Assembly (NCBI GenBank): GCA_013265495.1
Contig: MU057781.1
Location: forward strand, 746,001-810,000
Source of the DNA: Vicugna vicugna
Lineage: Eukaryota
DNA: 64,000 nucleotides
Direction of reading: 5' to 3'
The notes beneath the pieces were generated by a model. The model did no database searches and was not told where the DNA came from. It saw only the letters and a program-made list of their open reading frames with translations. Of the stretch, positions 26,060-62,615 are shown in pieces (within the stretch, counting starts at the first letter, position 1; the number at the start of each line of letters is the position of its first letter). Made by a program: the position numbers and the translations under genes.

Positions 26060-27393
26060 TCCTTATTTGGAGATGACGTGCGGACTAAGATGCATCCAGG
26101 TGACAAGCTGACAAGAGGTGGACTTGTGGTGGTTAACTTCACGTCCGCTTGACTGGGCTAAGGGATGCCCAGCTCGCCAGTCAAGCCTGGTTTCTGGGTG
26201 TGCCCGTGAGGTGTTCCTGGCGGAGATTAGTGCACGAGTCAGTAGACTCAGGAAAGGAGGCGGCCCTCCCCGACAGGGTGGGTCCCAGCCAACCCGCGCA
26301 GGGCCTGAAGAGAACGAATCAGCAGAGGAAGAGAGAACTCTCTCCTTCTCGGGCTGGGACGTCCATCTTTCCCTGCTCACGGACATCAGAGCTCCTGGTT
26401 CCTGGTCCTTCAGACTCTGCACTCGCCCCAGCACCCTCCCCACCCACACACCCCTCTCCCCGGTTCCCAGGCCTTAGGCCTCGGGCTGAGAGTTACACCG
26501 CCAGCCCCCACCCCAGTTCCCCACGTGCAGACAGCAGCTCCTGGGGCTTCTCAGCTGCCAGAACCGTGTATCCTCTCATACGTCTACATCTACGCCTGCA
26601 TCTGCATCTACATCTATGTCTACATCTGCATCTACACCTACAGCTGCATCCACACCTAAGTCCACGGCTACATCTACGTATGAATCTATGCCTACATCTC
26701 CATGTACGTCATCTACATCTATATCAACACCTATGTCTACATCTACATCTACATCATGTACATCCATATCTACATCTACACCCACATCAACATCCACATC
26801 TATGTCTACGTCTGCATCTGTATCCACATCTACATGTACGTCTGTTCTACATCTACATCATTTACATCCACATCCACGTCTATGTCTATGTCTACATCTA
26901 TGTCTACATCTGTATCTAGATCTGCATCTACATCTACATCTGTATCTACATCTATGTCATCTACATCTACGTCTACATCTGTATCTACATCCACATCTAC
27001 GTCTACGTCTACATCTGCATCTGTATCTACATCTAAGTCTACGTCTATATCTATGTCATTTACATCCATGTCCATGTCTACGTCCATGTCTACATCTATG
27101 TCTACATCTGTATCTAGATCTGCATCTACATCTATGTCTATATCTACATCTACATTATTTACATCTACATCTATGTCATCTACATCTATATCAACATCTA
27201 CATCTACGTCTACATCTGTATCTACATCTACATCATTTACACCTACATCCACATCTATCTCATCTACATCTGCATCTGCATCTATGTCTGTATCTACACC
27301 TACATCCACATCTATGTCTACATCTATATATCTGTTTGTCTATCCATCTATGTCCTATTGATTCTGTTTCTCTGGAGAACCCTGACTAATACA
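26060..27393 (+). mobile_element. ERVL internal 3' end (PPT) + MLT2 3' LTR (26125-27393)
   Basis: caagctgacaagaggtggact|tgtggtggttaacttcacgtccgcttgactgggctaagggatgcccag ... attctgtttctctggagaaccctgactaataca, the canonical MLT2 terminus. Confidence 0.88.
26576..27352 (+). repeat. Degenerate hexamer microsatellite (TACATC)n and variants, ~770 bp
   Basis: tctacatctacatctatgtctacatctgcatc...; produces HL-, ST-, YI- and DV-repeat ORFs in several frames. Confidence 0.95.
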
Positions 27394-27399
27394 ACAGCC

Positions 27400-28898
27400 C
27401 AAGGAAAGAGCAGACTATCCCCCATCACAGGAGATTTCCATTCTTCTCTCACAGTAGTCCACAGAACAAGCACACACATGCAGAATTACTGACACAGAAG
27501 TCTGGGGAACACTACTACACAACTTGACTGGGCTGACATCTATAGGACGTTGTAACTAACGACTGCATATCACACATTATTTTCAAGTGTGCAAGGAATA
27601 TTCACAGAGATAAGTTATATCCTGGGAGAAAAAAACCCCAAGTTTCAGTAAATTTCAAGGGTTTGAAATCATACAGAATATGTTGTCTGAACACAGAGAA
27701 ATTAAATAAGGCATCAGCAATAAAGATACGCTAAAAGTCTACAAACATTTGGAAATTTAGCAGCTAACTTCTATATGATCCATGGACCAAGTAATAAATC
27801 CTAAGGGAAATTATGAAATATTTAAAACTGAATATTATGAAAACCAACATAATAAAATTGGTGGGATGCAGCTAATTTTAAATGCTTATATGAGAAAAAT
27901 AAGAGAAGTTTAAGATCAGTGATCTAAGCTCTATCTTAAGGAGCTGAAAAAAAGGAGAGTAATTTAAATTCAAGAAAGAAGGAAGGAAAAGACATCAGAG
28001 CAGAAATCCATGAAAGCAATTAATGCTGGGGAAAAATCAACAAAGCAAATTATTGTTCCCTTGCAAAAAATCAATAAAATCGACAGACTTCTGGCATTAC
28101 AGAATAAGAAAAAGGAGCAAGAAAATTGCCATTTCAGAAATGAAAAAGGGGTATCACCACAGAGCCTAGAGACACTAGAAGAGTAATAAAAAGGAGTATT
28201 GTGAAAATTTTGTGCCATAAACTCACAACTCAGATGAAATGGAGAAGTTCTTTGAAGAATACAATTTATCAAAACTGACAGAACAGGAAACGTGAGGGGC
28301 CCATGTATGTAAACAAAATGGAATTTATAATTAAGAACATTCCCCCAAAGCAAACAGCAGGCGCTGAGAGGTCCATATGAGAACAGTAAGCCTGGACTGT
28401 ACATAAACGTTAACTCATAATGGGTCAGAGGCCTAAGTGTAGAAGCCAACACTAAGCACTGGGAGAAAACCGAGGGGACTACCTGCACGGCTTTATTTTA
28501 GGCAAAGAGCTATTGGCTGTGACACCGAACACACGAGCCTGGAAAAACCCTAAACTGGTCTCCACTAACCTCAAAAACTTTTGTGCTTCAAAAGACACCA
28601 TTAAGAAAACAAAAAAACAAGACACAGACTGGGAGGAAATACTGCAAATCATATTTCTGGAGGCCTGTACACAGAATATATAAAGGACTTTTACAACTCG
28701 ATTATAAGAAAACAAGCCACCCAATTAAAAGGTAGACAAAAGCCTTGAATAGACTTCCGACTATTTCATACCAATGGCACATACACACATAAAACTGTGC
28801 TTCCCACCATGAATCATTAGGCAGATGAAAATTCAAACCACAGTGAGTTACTACTATATACTTACTTGAAAGGCCACAATAAAAAAGACAGACAATAC
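27400..28898 (+). mobile_element. L1M ORF2 fragments (endonuclease region onward, deleted)
   Basis: ttttcaagtgtgcaaggaatattcacagagataagttatatcctggga (FSSAHGTF.KIDHILG-like), aaaatcaataaaatcgacagacttctggca, and cttttgtgcttcaaaagacaccattaaga. Confidence 0.85.
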
Positions 28899-53290: not shown

Positions 53291-53387
53291 GGACCGGAGA
53301 GCGCTGCAGGAGTGGAGGGAGCAGACCCGGGTGATGAAGAGTAGGAGGAGGGAGCTCAGCAGGTTCCCGCCCCTGCAGAGGAACCTG
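53291..53387 (+). CDS. LRRC27: LRRC27 coding exon 7, 97 nt
   Basis: [32 protein letters not shown] vs recalled human [32 protein letters not shown]. Acceptor gttcccgcag; donor CTG|GTACGT. Confidence 0.92.
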
Positions 53388-54604
53388 GTACGTCGGGGGC
53401 CCTGCCCTGAGTGCCCCGTGTGTCCCGAGGGCTGGGGTGAGGGGTGCCAGGGTCCAGGTTCACGGACGCAGGAGGCACCCCACCTCGCAAAGCCTGACTG
53501 CCCGCCAGCCTCTGTCATGCAGCCAGCAGGTGACCTCGGGCAGAAAACAGGCCTCCAGGGGGGCCTCCCCCAGCACCTTGCGCTCGCCCTGGCTCTGGCC
53601 ACCCCACTGCAGTCTGGGTGCCCTCCCCTGGCTTCCTGGGAGCTCCCCCAGGGGGTTCAGGCCAGGCCCGGGCATCGCTGTGAAGTGAGCGTCGCTGCCC
53701 CGTGCCCTCCTGGGGCCCCCCTGACCACCTTGTTCCCCTGGGAAGCTGTCCGTGTCCTGCCTTGGCCTGCTCCTCCTGCCCTCCCCCAGACATTCCCGAG
53801 GCCTCGCCTGTCCTCACTCTGCGCCCGCTTTCCCCAAGTCGTCTCTGTCCTGGCGTCCAGGCCTCGTCTCCTCTCCAGTGGACAGTCACCACCACACCTA
53901 TCCTGGCGTGCACCCCTGCTCTCTCACGGGCAGCCTCCATGTCTGCAGCCCTGGCCCAGCAAGGCTGTCATAATGAAGTCTCCCCTCTGGGGCCCCGGGC
54001 CCTACCTGCTGCCCACCTTCTCCCTGCCACAGTGCCTGAGGCCTCGCCTGCCGTGCCCCCGTCCGTGTCTTCAGAGCAGGTGTGGGAGCTCTGGACCTCG
54101 ACCTGCACGGGCTCCTCGGCCACATGTGCCTGCCAGCCAGGACTCTGCAGGCAGCCCCTTGACCCCACCAGACCCCTGCCCCGCCCACCTCAGGCCCCTG
54201 GGCTGGCCATGTGGGGCCTGCGGTTGCCAGCTGTCACTGTGCCCGACTCACCAGCCTCCTGCTCTGGGCGCTGACCATGGGTGGAAAGGCGAGGGGCTTG
54301 GGGTGGTGGGCTCAGGGCCTCCGGGGAGGGTGCCCATGTGAGGCCGGGATCTGGGCCTCAGTCCAGGCCTTGCCGCACGACCTGAGCAGACCTCCTCCGC
54401 CTTCCCCTGAGGCCCAGTCTGGGAGTCCCCTCAGCCTCTTCGTGGCGGCGAGGCTGCCCCTCAGCCCGGGCACAGAGGGGCTGTTCAGGGGACCCTGGGA
54501 GACCACGGCCCCAAGGCTGCTGTGGCTCCAGAGAGGGTGTCTCCTCCTGGCCCCGCCCACTCGGGGGGCCTATGTGAACATCACGGCGACTGTGGCAGCT
54601 GCTG

Positions 54605-57762: not shown

Positions 57763-57879
57763 GTGACATCAAAAATTCCCTTTGCCACGGATCTGATGGA
57801 GAATGAGAAAACCCGTGAATTCACCTGGAAAAATGAGACAAAGCAGAGAGAGATCACTGCACGCAAATCAAGGAATGCG
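57763..57879 (+). CDS. LRRC27: LRRC27 coding exon 8, 117 nt, with apparent frameshift near 57811
   Basis: Acceptor ttgcattttccag. The entry frame gives VTSKIPFATDLMENEK, but homology (PVNSPGKMRQSRERSLHANQGM) continues in a different frame. Donor CG|GTTGGT. Confidence 0.85.
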
Positions 57880-59914
57880 GTTGGTGACGAGTTCTGATTC
57901 AGTTCTGCTGGGCCCAGCCACCCCCCCCCACCCCCTCTGGTCTGAGCAGGAGGCGGCTGAGAGAGGGGACCGGACCGAGAGTGGGAAAGTCTTATTCCCT
58001 GCCCTCAGAGCTGCAACTGCAGCCTCTGTCCAGTTACCCCGTCCTGCTGTGCGCACCTGGTCCCGAGAAGCTCCCCCCACCCCGCAGCTCGGGGTCCTGG
58101 CAGGCCTTGCTTTCCCTGTGCTGACAACTCCCACCATGCTGATCCGGTGTCTGCACTCCAGTGGGGTGACCTCTGAGCTCCTGCGCCTGAGAGGGCCCCG
58201 CACCCCTCCCCACACCTCCCTTCCTGCCCCACCGCAGCAAAGTGCCCCCTGCTCCTGCCGGGGGCTGAGCCTGAGCATGGTCGGAGGGCCTGGAGCAGCC
58301 CTCGTGCTGCAACAGGTGGGTGGCAGAACCAGCCATCCCTCTTAGGCCTGGAACTCAGGAAATGCCACAGGTCTGCAGGCTGGGTTAGCCCCAGCCACGT
58401 GGGTGATTTAAACTGAGGTCCAGGGCGTTCAGATGTTCTCACCTGTCCCTATGGAGCCCACGTCGCCCTCGCGGGCCCTCAGAAAGCCCACGGCAGAGCA
58501 TGTCTGTCCACGGACACCCCTGGCCCGTGGCCTGGACTTTCCTAAGGGCCACGGTCTGATCTGTGTGGAGGACACCTGTGGTCTGTCTTTCAGCCTTTAT
58601 TCTCAGAGCAGAAACCCAGACAGATGTGCAGCTGTTGGAGCTGCGGTCAGGAGCCCAGTCAGAGGACACACCAGGCTCCACGTGTCCCTGACACTGGAGG
58701 CCCGGCCGCCCTTCCTGCCACACTCCCGGCTCTGAGCGAGGGCTTCCAGGGCCACTCGGAGCTCCTATTTAAAACCAAAGAATAGGGGCCCGGAGCCCGG
58801 GGGCCTGGTGCCAGCAGAGTGGGTGTGTTTGAAGCCCTGCTCAGTGCAGTGCCTGCTTTCCGTCTGAGGATTCATTAAAACTGTGTGTTTCACATGCAAA
58901 GACTCCCATTCTCCTCGTGCGGCACAGCGTCCTCAGCGTGTAACACGGTACCTGGGCTTGGAGCGTTTAAAACAGCATCCGTGGGTCGGGTGGGGAGAGG
59001 CCGCCCGCCCGCTGGCAACGCCCTGGGACTGCGGTTTGGCCCGAAGGAGGGAGAGGAAGCTCCTCCCCCCTCTTGGGATGGGAGAGGCCCCGCGACTAGC
59101 CCATCGCCCTTGGCTTTGCCAGTGCCCCCCAGGAGGAGAGCCGGGAAGAAGAGCCGCAGCAAGCGCGCGGCCAGAGAGGCGGGTCCCGTGGGCTAGCGCC
59201 CCTCGGGGGAGTGAGGGGGGCCGCGAGGGCCTGGAGACGGCAGGTGCCTGTCAGCTCGGCTTGAAGGTGCACGGTTTTATTCAAAATTGAAGGAAACCAC
59301 ACCGCCAGCGGCTGCTGTGTGTGGGAAATGTGCGGGGTTACACAGCAGTGCAGAGACCGAGGAGACACCATCCTGTCCTGAGTGACGCAGTTGGCCCCCC
59401 TGCCCCCCCGAGAGTGCCCAGGCCTCCACAGGCCCTTCCGGCCGAGCCCGACGCCCCTGTGCCCTGGCTCTCACAGCTGCAGGAAGACTCGCCTGTTCTC
59501 CCCGACCACCCAGGCCCCCCGCTCACTGTCTCGCCCTGACGGTGGTGGCTCAGGGCCCCGGGTCTGCTGTGCTGGGCTGCACCGAGGCAGCCCCAGAGGC
59601 GGCAGCCTCACCCCAACAGCTCGTCAAGGGCCCCGGCACAATGTCCCCTCCCCTGGGGCCGGAGGGGTGGTGGGGGGAGCGCAGGCAGGGGCTGCTCACT
59701 TCACGGAGGCCCCACCCTGGTCAGACTCAGCCCCCTTCTCAGACGCTTTCCTTCCGGCCCAGAGTGTTTCACCTGCTTCAGGCGAACCTTTACTCTCTCC
59801 AGATCTGTTCATGGGAGTGAGCTCATTCTTGGACACCCAAAACCCTACCTCCTGGGGCTTCTGGACATCCACGTCTCAGCCCACTGCTCAGAGTGTAGAC
59901 TCAGAAGTCTCTCC

Positions 59915-62615
59915 GGCGTCATGAACAACTCTGTGCTCACAGACCTGGTGCCCTACACGAAATGGACCAATTCCTTGAAAGACGCTACCTGCCAAAGCTC
60001 ACACGAGGAGAAACGGACAATCTGAATAGACGGATGTGTGTTAAAGAAATTGAGTCTGTAACTAATAACTTCCCAGCAGGTTTGCTGGTGAAGTCTACCA
60101 GATAATTAAGAGAGTGATCATACGAACTCTCCTAAGTCTCTCCCGAAAATAGAAGCAGAGGGAACACTTGGTGGCTCATCCTGTGAGGCCAGCATCACCG
60201 TGATACCATAGCCCAGGGCGTTACACGAGAGGAAGACTCCAGAGCAGCCTCTCTCACGAACACAGATGCGGAAGTCCTCAACAAAATACGAGCAGATCAA
60301 ATCCAACAACGTATGGAAAGAATTATGCACAACAAGCAAGTGGAATTTATCCCAGGCAAGCAAGGCTGGCTCGCACTTGAAAACCAGTTTAATAAAGCAT
60401 TACATCAACAGGCTGAAGAAGAGCAACTGTGCGGCTGTATCAGTAGAGGAAGGAAGAGCAGTTATCAAAGCCCGAGACAAAAGCTGTCAGCAAACCAGGG
60501 ACAGCGAGGTGCCTCCTCAGCCTGAAGAGCGTCCGCAGAGACTCACACTAACGTCGCACTGAGTGGTGAGAGGCCAGAAGCTTTTCTGTAAGGTCAGGTG
60601 CGAGAGGAGGAGTCCACTCCCACTGCTGCTCCTCAGCATCGTGCTGGACATCTTGGCTGACGCAACAAGAAAGGGAAAGTAAATACAAATCAAGAAGATG
60701 GAGATACAGCTTTGTTTTAAATGACACGATTGTCTGTGTAGAAAGTCCCAACAAATCGACCAAAAAAAAATCCTGGAACTGATAAGCAGTTGCAGAAGGC
60801 AGCAAGACACAGGGTTCACCTGGAGAGGTCCATCACCTCCCACGTGCCAGCGATGGACAGGTGGCATGTCAGCACTGAAAAAACGGTACAAGGCGTCGAT
60901 CTAGCAGAACGGGTACAGAGTCTACGTGAGGAAAACTGCAAAACTGAACGAAAGAAACCGAAGAAGAATAAATAAATGGAGAGACAGTACATGTTCACGG
61001 GTAGGAAGACTCAGTAGTGCCGAGGGGTCAGTTCTCCCCAGACTGATCTATAGATTCAGCGTAGGTTCACAGCACTGGCTTTGTGGACATTGGCAAACGG
61101 ATGTTCCAGCTTATGCACAGATGCAGAAGACTCGAAACAGCCAGAGCAGCCCTGGAGGGGAGGAGCAGAGGCAGAGGGCGGGCCCCGCCCAACGTCAAGA
61201 CTTCCCATCTAGCTCGTGTGTCATGTTAGTGAAAGTCTGGGCGAATATGGATCAATGGAACAGACAGAGAGCCCAGAAACGGACCCACACAAGTACAGTC
61301 AGCTGGCCTTTGACAGAGGAGCAGAGGTAACAGTGGAGCAAAGACGGGCACCTGCACAGCCACACACACAGAGTGAGTCCAGACACAGACCTGATGGCGT
61401 CACAAAAAGTAACTCAAAGTGCGTCATCCTTTTAGACTGCATACGCTGGGTGTGTGTAGTTTCCTTGTGTCTCGATTACACCCCAGTGAAGCTGTAAGAA
61501 GGTGGGTCACAGACTTACGTGTAAAACGCAAAACCATAAAGCTTCTAGAAGACGACGGAGGGAGAACCTAGATGGCCCTGAGTGGGTGATGACTTTTTAC
61601 GCAGAACGTGAAGGCATGAAAGAAAAAGTTGGCAGGTTGAACTTCATTAAAATGTACAAATTCTGCTTCGTGAAAGACACTGTCAAGAATAAGACAGCCA
61701 CAGACGGAGAGAAAATATTTACAGAAGACACATCTGGTTAAGCACTATTGTCCAAAATACGTGAAGAACTCTTAAAACTCAATAGAAAGAAAACAACCCA
61801 ATTAAATACCAGGCCACAGATCTGAGCAGACACCTTCCCAGAGGAGACACACAGATACTAATTAGGGACGCCCGCCTTAGGAGCTGCGGATTAGCACAAG
61901 GAGGTGGCACCACCCACACCTGGCTGCAGCCGGGGCCCTGCCAGTAAGGAGCGCTGGGAGGGCGGGGATGCGAAACCGTGCGGCCGCCGTGGAAGACAGT
62001 GTGATGGTTTCTCACAAGACTAAACCTACTCATCAAGTGACCCGTCCAGCCATCGCATCCCTTGGTATTCACGCAAAGGAGTTGAAAACTCACGTCCACA
62101 CAAAAACCTGCACACAGACGTTTACAGCAGCTTTATCCATAACTACCAGAATGTGGAAGCGACCGGGATGTTTTCAGCAGGTGGGCGGATGAATAAACCT
62201 TGGTCCATCCAGACAACGGGATTTTATTCAGAGACACAAAGAAATGAGCTGCCAAGCCACGAAAGACACGGAAGAACTTTAAATGCTTGTTACCGAGCAG
62301 AAGAAACCCATCTGAACTGGCTGCCTGCTGCCCGGCCCAGCTCTGGGGCGTTCTCGGGAGGGTCAGCCTACGGAGACGGTGAAATGAGCAGGGGTTGCCA
62401 GGGCTGAGGGGAGGGGCGAGGCGGCGGACACGGAGGAGTCTGGGGGCCACAAGGACCCTGCGTATGGTGCCGTCCTGATGGGCAGTGCCACTACATTTGT
62501 CCAGACCCACAGAATGCACAGCACCAGGAGTGAGCCCCCAGGCCGACTGTGTGTGGGCAATGAGCTGCGTCAGCGTGGGCTCCCAGTTGTGACGATGTCC
62601 CCTCTGCTGGGTGTG
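59915..62615 (+). mobile_element. L1MC-like ORF2 (RT to C-terminus) and 3' UTR, degenerate
   Basis: gaaatggaccaattccttgaaaga, ggccagcatcaccgtgatacca, catgttcacgggtaggaagactcag, and 3' UTR tttgtccagacccacagaatgcacagcacc. Confidence 0.88.

Follow-up and report, generated by a model that had tools for sequence, protein, structure and literature searches.

In mammalian gene-loss screens, two frameshifting indels can compensate each other, as stated by Sharma et al. 2018 (PMC5865188), who also name changes in exon-intron structure separately among the events that mimic gene loss. The TOGA2 preprint likewise uses the term compensating frameshift. In compensating frameshifts of conserved mammalian genes, a frame-changing indel is cancelled by a second event, so that the gene stays intact with a short out-of-frame stretch. 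The LRRC27 gene of camelids resembles these cases, with the difference that its second event would be a whole downstream exon (1 mod 3 in length) gone from the mRNA, and not a nearby indel in the same exon. It also resembles lineage-specific exon loss or skipping, in that an ancestral internal coding exon lies outside the annotated CDS and seems to be decaying in place as a pseudo-exon. However, losing a 1-mod-3 exon would by itself change the frame in which the last exon is read, whereas camelid LRRC27 pairs the putative skip with an upstream 2-nt deletion and is frame-neutral. Relative to the LRRC27 proteins of pig (P0045), horse (P0031) and bat (P0005), the camelid protein has the same LRR region, the same order of exons 1-7, the same start of exon 8 and the same C-terminal exon, but it is shorter, having no exon 9 segment and a new stretch of 22 basic and acidic residues. 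The event in camelid LRRC27 is thus of an ordinary type, in a gene about which little is known, and its particular feature would be the compensation by whole-exon loss. Among the titles listed, we found no paper on LRRC27 function, and in the literature searched none links LRRC27 with camelids: no paper mentions it together with camel, and the one that mentions both LRRC27 and alpaca is off-topic by its title.

The window analysed here is a 64,000-nt stretch of Vicugna vicugna contig MU057781.1 (positions 746001-810000), GC-rich mammalian DNA from an assembly of 2.03 Gb in 12,405 contigs. An ORF at 34690-34896 matches residues 1-69 of Vicugna pacos LRRC27 with 100% identity and Camelus ferus LRRC27 with 94% identity. 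With five LRRC27 proteins as tblastn queries, eight LRRC27 coding exons were located on the + strand between 34690 and 57879, and the locus matches LRRC27 of camel, rhinoceros, bat and rodent exon by exon. Since the downstream exons fall outside the window, 40 kb of DNA past its end were added, and a script scanned GT/GC-AG sites around the tblastn bounds. One path of nine exons, separated by GT-AG introns, yielded a CDS of 1422 nt whose translation is exactly the alpaca RefSeq isoform X3 (P0012, 473 aa). Pfam recognises an LRR region at residues 48-148 of this isoform, with LRR_8 (1.9e-15), LRR_1 and LRR_4 all above cut-off. The identification of the gene as an LRRC27 orthologue is based on these N-terminal LRR profiles together with a match to annotated LRRC27 of related species that is colinear over the full length. 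An alternative terminal coding exon (54009-54338) lies in the intron that follows exon 7 and is used by alpaca isoform X2 (CLRPRLPCPRP...GRVPM); it is proline- and cysteine-rich and has no resemblance to other LRRC27 sequence. Upstream of the gene, a long TA/CA-rich simple repeat at 27118-27489 translates as IYIYIY runs. On another contig, an intron-less LRRC27-like stretch (L002:1468-1992; G000:C9280, ~18674243-18674767) covers residues 1-185 with exons 1-4 joined, at 41-47% identity to LRRC27 proteins and with several in-frame stops, and is most likely an old, truncated processed pseudogene. We considered this retrocopy as a possible fossil of an old mRNA and set it aside: spanning residues 1-185 only and carrying stops, it is uninformative on exons 8 and 9.

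The lesion lies in the eighth coding exon. Exon 7 (53291-53387, + strand, 97 nt) ends in phase 0 with ...QRNL at the donor AACCTG|gtacgt, and exon 8 (57763-57879, + strand, 117 nt) opens in frame behind the acceptor ttttccag|GTGACA, as the preliminary description had it. Exon 8 ends at the donor AATGCG|gttggt, and these bounds give isoform X3 exactly. Its entry frame reads VTSKIPFATDLMENEKTREFTWKNETKQREITARKSRNAVGDEF and, with the donor unused, reaches the stop TGA at 57895-57897 through the tail VGDEF*; this direct reading agrees with the stop predicted earlier for the unspliced exon. The +1 frame reads PVNSPGKMRQSRERSLHANQGMR. The chance of such a change of frame was assessed with a profile built from 16 non-camelid LRRC27 tails, restricted to their exon 8 portion, which was run against six-frame translations of 104 kb (the window plus 40 kb downstream). 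Profile positions 1-17 match frame 0 at 57763-57813 (21.7 bits, iE 4e-8 in the 104-kb search), the 17 codons VTSKIPFATDLMENEKT, and positions 18-39 match the +1 frame at 57812-57877 (20.5 bits, iE 1e-7 in the same search). The next best match of this profile in the 104 kb scores -2.0 bits. The resemblance to orthologues does move to the shifted frame in mid-exon, as first proposed, with 17 codons in frame 0 and the rest in +1 only, which amounts to a frame-changing indel relative to the orthologues. The first match ends at profile position 17 and the second begins at position 18, and on the DNA they share 2 nt; therefore, the lesion is a 2-nt deletion in the Thr-Pro codons and not a 1-nt insertion, and only the former of the two possibilities initially offered holds. 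It sits in the A4C3 run AAAACCC at 57808-57814 (+ strand), where the ancestral Thr-Pro codons (6 nt) are cut to ACCC. The exit phase of exon 8 is changed, as had been claimed, from the ancestral phase 2 to phase 0, and the native residues extend to position 403, one more than the approximate count of 402 given earlier. The remainder of the exon, 57814-57879 (+ strand), is read in the new frame as the 22 codons REFTWKNETKQREITARKSRNA. The abandoned frame of this stretch, PVNSPGKMRQSRERSLHANQGM, is still orthologue-like, with a mean identity to orthologues of 0.51 vs 0.53 for the functional pig exon. Both frames encode Lys/Arg/Glu-rich peptides because the stretch is purine-rich.

The deletion is common to the camelids. 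We compared 16 camelid tails, namely 15 of the 20 members of the C. ferus LRRC27 protein cluster plus alpaca X2, and the 11 models among these 16 that include exon 8 all read T[RG]EFTWK[NS]ETKQREITARK[SP]R[NK]A, which is the shifted frame. These models come from three species and at least four assemblies (the chromosome-scale assembly of Vicugna pacos, C. ferus, and the GenBank and RefSeq assemblies of C. dromedarius). In all 20 non-camelid tails (16 aligned, 4 unaligned) the frame is the ancestral one, and a Pro stands two residues past a conserved Lys (K-x-P); the same holds for those of 15 further non-camelid isoforms that include this part of exon 8. The cross-species comparison of the exon suggested at the outset, when run on protein tails, places camelids in the shifted frame and all 20 non-camelid tails in the ancestral one. 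The 2-nt deletion is absent from pig, horse, bats, carnivores, rodents, tarsier, tree shrew and manatee. Given the shifted reading in all exon-8 camelid models and the ancestral frame in other mammals, the protein comparison makes the deletion a fixed camelid trait older than the Camelus-Vicugna split. A search for further camelid proteins with exon 8 plus five read-through codons returned the known cluster only. An assembly or sequencing error in the A4C3 run, with an ordinary true exon of 119 nt, had been held a real alternative, and the lesion does sit within a short homopolymer run. Against this, the same frame is found in the chromosome-scale V. pacos assembly (which is not the 12,405-contig assembly of the window), in C. 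ferus and in two C. dromedarius assemblies, so that an assembly artefact was rejected. Moreover, if exon 8 had 119 nt, splicing it straight to the last exon would break the frame, yet this join gives the RefSeq protein exactly. We regard such an error as extremely improbable.

In the alpaca and dromedary annotations, exon 8 is joined directly to the last coding exon. This exon starts 414 nt past the window end (L009:414-560, extended window coordinates 64414-64560, + strand), behind the acceptor cccccaag|GCC and in phase 0. Together with exon 8, which is entered and left in phase 0, it keeps a frame open through the ancestral stop, and it encodes the ancestral 48-residue C-terminus in frame up to the NTKY stop, ending as the mouse-like, horse and tree-shrew proteins do. 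It matches its profile over 48 of 48 positions with 83.7 bits in the 104-kb search, and its mean identity to 14 other mammals is 0.60 in alpaca vs 0.51 in pig. The sequence past the putative second event is hence conserved in the ancestral frame. The join of exon 8 to ARKLQDEV... recurs in dromedary P0024 (476 aa), which also shares the C-terminal end of alpaca X3. The preliminary description expected the downstream exons to be read out of frame, which the gene models do not support: in the alpaca X3 and dromedary models the last exon is the sole downstream coding exon and is read from phase 0 in the ancestral frame to the ancestral stop. Translating the spliced CDS into the next exon, a check it had recommended, gives alpaca X3 in the ancestral frame. 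The predicted truncation or NMD does not fit the X3-type spliced CDS, which is open and ends in the ancestral C-terminus, yet several predicted isoforms end early. In the predicted models, compensating splicing that skips exon 9 restores the ancestral C-terminus in alpaca X3 and dromedary, an outcome that the same description had named as evidence against its reading. C. ferus X1 (P0003) shares this join yet departs in its last 16 residues (...GRLCTQPGCIPASEYIF) from the alpaca and dromedary counterpart ...GRLSL(G/S)PAA(Y/S)..., a difference that suggests, from the protein sequence, another 1-nt frameshift affecting the last exon in this assembly or species. Two tandem acceptors (aag|GCCAG|AAA) serve the last exon, at 64414 and, 5 nt further on, at 64419, and the downstream one gives the KAAG* end of alpaca X6 and C. 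ferus X4. The splice patterns compared here are those of predicted NCBI gene models. Fourteen of 24 DNA and RNA runs, all of DNA type, hold at least 0.91 of the sampled words of an 8-kb stretch and six RNA-type runs hold 0.10-0.19; this is a word sampling of the whole stretch, with no bearing on the site, its expression or its splicing.

Other mammals have ~44 residues between exon 8 and ARKLQ, for example S/TFHEGNLQEKLNQHVQQRHDRRSRPRGLAPLGETRKAVRDLQT in pig. From the protein alignments and phases, the ancestral exon 8 would have had 119 nt and run from phase 0 to 2, in which case exon 9 must be 1 mod 3; its probable length of ~130 nt (phase 2 to 0) was derived from pig and horse residue counts in protein alignments, plus the phases. 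An exon 9 profile finds a single match in the intron after exon 8, at 59133-59231, with 13.2 bits against the intron alone; against the 104 kb it is the sole positive match at 9.2 bits, and the next best scores -4.0. This match marks a decayed remnant of ancestral exon 9 at 59133-59243 (+ strand, 111 nt), flanked by the acceptor ccccccag|GAG and the donor GGCAG|gtgcct, with the phase-0 reading EESREEEPQQARGQRGGSRGLAPLGGVRGAARAWRRQ. The remnant is ~19 nt shorter than the probable ancestral exon, and its stretch RGLAPLGG recalls RGLAPLGE of pig. Its mean identity to 14 mammals is low (0.32 in alpaca vs 0.45 in pig). The tail of C. ferus X2 aligns to the remnant region in two different frames and with a 12-nt gap relative to alpaca, and alpaca has stops where C. 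ferus X2 reads W and Q. The indels that separate Camelus from alpaca in this region therefore have lengths not divisible by three, as a no-longer-coding exon would show. None of 15 additional non-camelid isoform tails runs from exon 8 straight into the last exon. When metagenome contigs were scanned for host-derived LRRC27 tail exons as outgroup DNA, 597 pattern matches came up, none of which was confirmed. Open frames at 60187-61494, in the intronic DNA that separates the remnant from the last exon, may be fragments of a LINE-1 reverse-transcriptase region.

We propose that a 2-nt deletion in LRRC27 exon 8 was fixed in camelids and that its shift is cancelled by the loss of ancestral exon 9 from the mRNA, and we consider this account probable. 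In the ancestral state, exon 8 (119 nt) would have passed from phase 0 to 2 and exon 9 (~130 nt) from phase 2 to 0, with the last exon starting in phase 0. In the camelid state, exon 8 with its 117 nt would run from phase 0 to 0 and be spliced straight to the last exon. The total change would be -2 and -130 nt, or 44 codons, so that the second event would bring the sum to a multiple of three; here the length of exon 9 as 1 mod 3 comes from the phases and the pig and horse protein alignments. Since any two unrelated frame changes would cancel each other with a chance of 1 in 3, the arithmetic alone is weak evidence. The camelid protein would then consist of 403 native residues, the 22 new ones and the intact ancestral 48-residue C-terminus, and ~66 ancestral residues would be exchanged for 22 new ones. 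LRRC27 has 473 aa in alpaca and 476 aa in dromedary vs ~512-527 aa in other mammals. The altered stretch falls outside the Pfam-recognised LRR region. On the evidence of the gene models, the transcript that joins exon 8 to the last exon may be the main functional one, and selection appears to have kept the C-terminus.

The frameshift might instead be uncompensated, with the main camelid transcripts ending early past exon 8 (~403 native residues and a short new tail) or being degraded, so that the C-terminus would be effectively lost and the X3-type product minor. Several predicted isoforms point in this direction. Alpaca X1 ends in an alternative terminal coding exon within the intron after exon 8 (58594-58785, + strand, PLFSEQKPRQ...KTKE*), and splicing exon 8 to the acceptor at 58594 gives P0013 exactly. 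Alpaca X6 and its C. ferus counterpart X4 end in KAAG* through the downstream of the two tandem acceptors, 5 nt into the last exon; C. ferus X2 and X3 end shortly past exon 8, two GenBank C. dromedarius models (P0016, P0019) read through the donor and end in VGDEF*, and the tail of C. ferus X1 is itself shifted within the last exon. The donor of exon 8, GCG|gttggt, also deviates from the usual consensus. However, no stop interrupts the ancestral frame of the last exon, which terminates at the same position and, with its 83.7-bit match, is conserved at least as well as in pig, while the phases of the exons match exactly. In addition, the in-frame join occurs in both the alpaca and the dromedary annotations, and RefSeq dromedary P0024 carries the sole name without an isoform label. 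Predominant early termination is thus unlikely in our estimate.

The exon 9 remnant could also still be a used coding exon in alpaca, such that exon 8, the 111-nt remnant and the last exon make a protein of 510 aa, with the deletions in exon 8 and in 5' exon 9 bracketing a short out-of-frame stretch. The remnant has AG and GT sites, no phase-0 stop and a length that is a multiple of three, and entry in phase 0 puts its 3' part, RGLAPLGGVRGAAR, into the ancestral frame. Its inclusion gives an open 510-aa ORF ending in NTKY, and C. ferus X2 demonstrates that the region can be spliced in. Yet none of the 15 camelid models compared (of 20 in the cluster) includes the remnant in this manner, and C. 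ferus X2, which enters at an upstream acceptor, meets a stop inside the region. The frame-changing indels between Camelus and alpaca and the low similarity to orthologues (9.2 bits) speak against continued coding as well. In GC-rich DNA, 37 codons free of stops are nothing exceptional, and frame 2 of the remnant is open too; the donor CAG|gtgcct is weak at +4 and +5 relative to the consensus. We therefore judge continued use of the remnant to be quite unlikely and retain the account in which exon 9 is lost from the mRNA and the exon 8 deletion is compensated.

Comparison of alpaca and dromedary suggests where the protein is constrained. No residue differs in the LRR exons 2 (0 of 44) and 4 (0 of 50), one of 32 differs in exon 7 and four of 48 in the last exon, and the new-frame part of exon 8 has the highest rate of any segment (3 of 22). 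By these residue counts, LRRC27 as a whole is under constraint and not decaying, and the new-frame segment may be under little constraint. A unitary pseudogene, that is, gene loss, was rejected, as an intact frame of 473 codons exists and 0 of 94 residues differ in LRR exons 2 and 4 between the two species. The 2-nt deletion might be a selected rescue: exon 9 would have been lost first from the mRNA of stem camelids, and the deletion then fixed for restoring the 48-residue C-terminus. This reading is possible but doubtful. If it is true, the C-terminal tail would be essential to the function of the uncharacterised LRRC27 protein, and the ~66-residue segment of exons 8b and 9 would be dispensable.

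Camelid LRRC27 illustrates that a frameshift in a single exon cannot be taken as gene loss without its splice context, and scans scoring single exons would wrongly label this gene truncated. With exon 9 probably lost and the deletion compensated, camelids would provide a natural deletion experiment, in which ~66 residues (exon 8b and exon 9) may be swapped for 22 unrelated ones. The kept LRR region and the last 48 residues would then point to the site of LRRC27 function.
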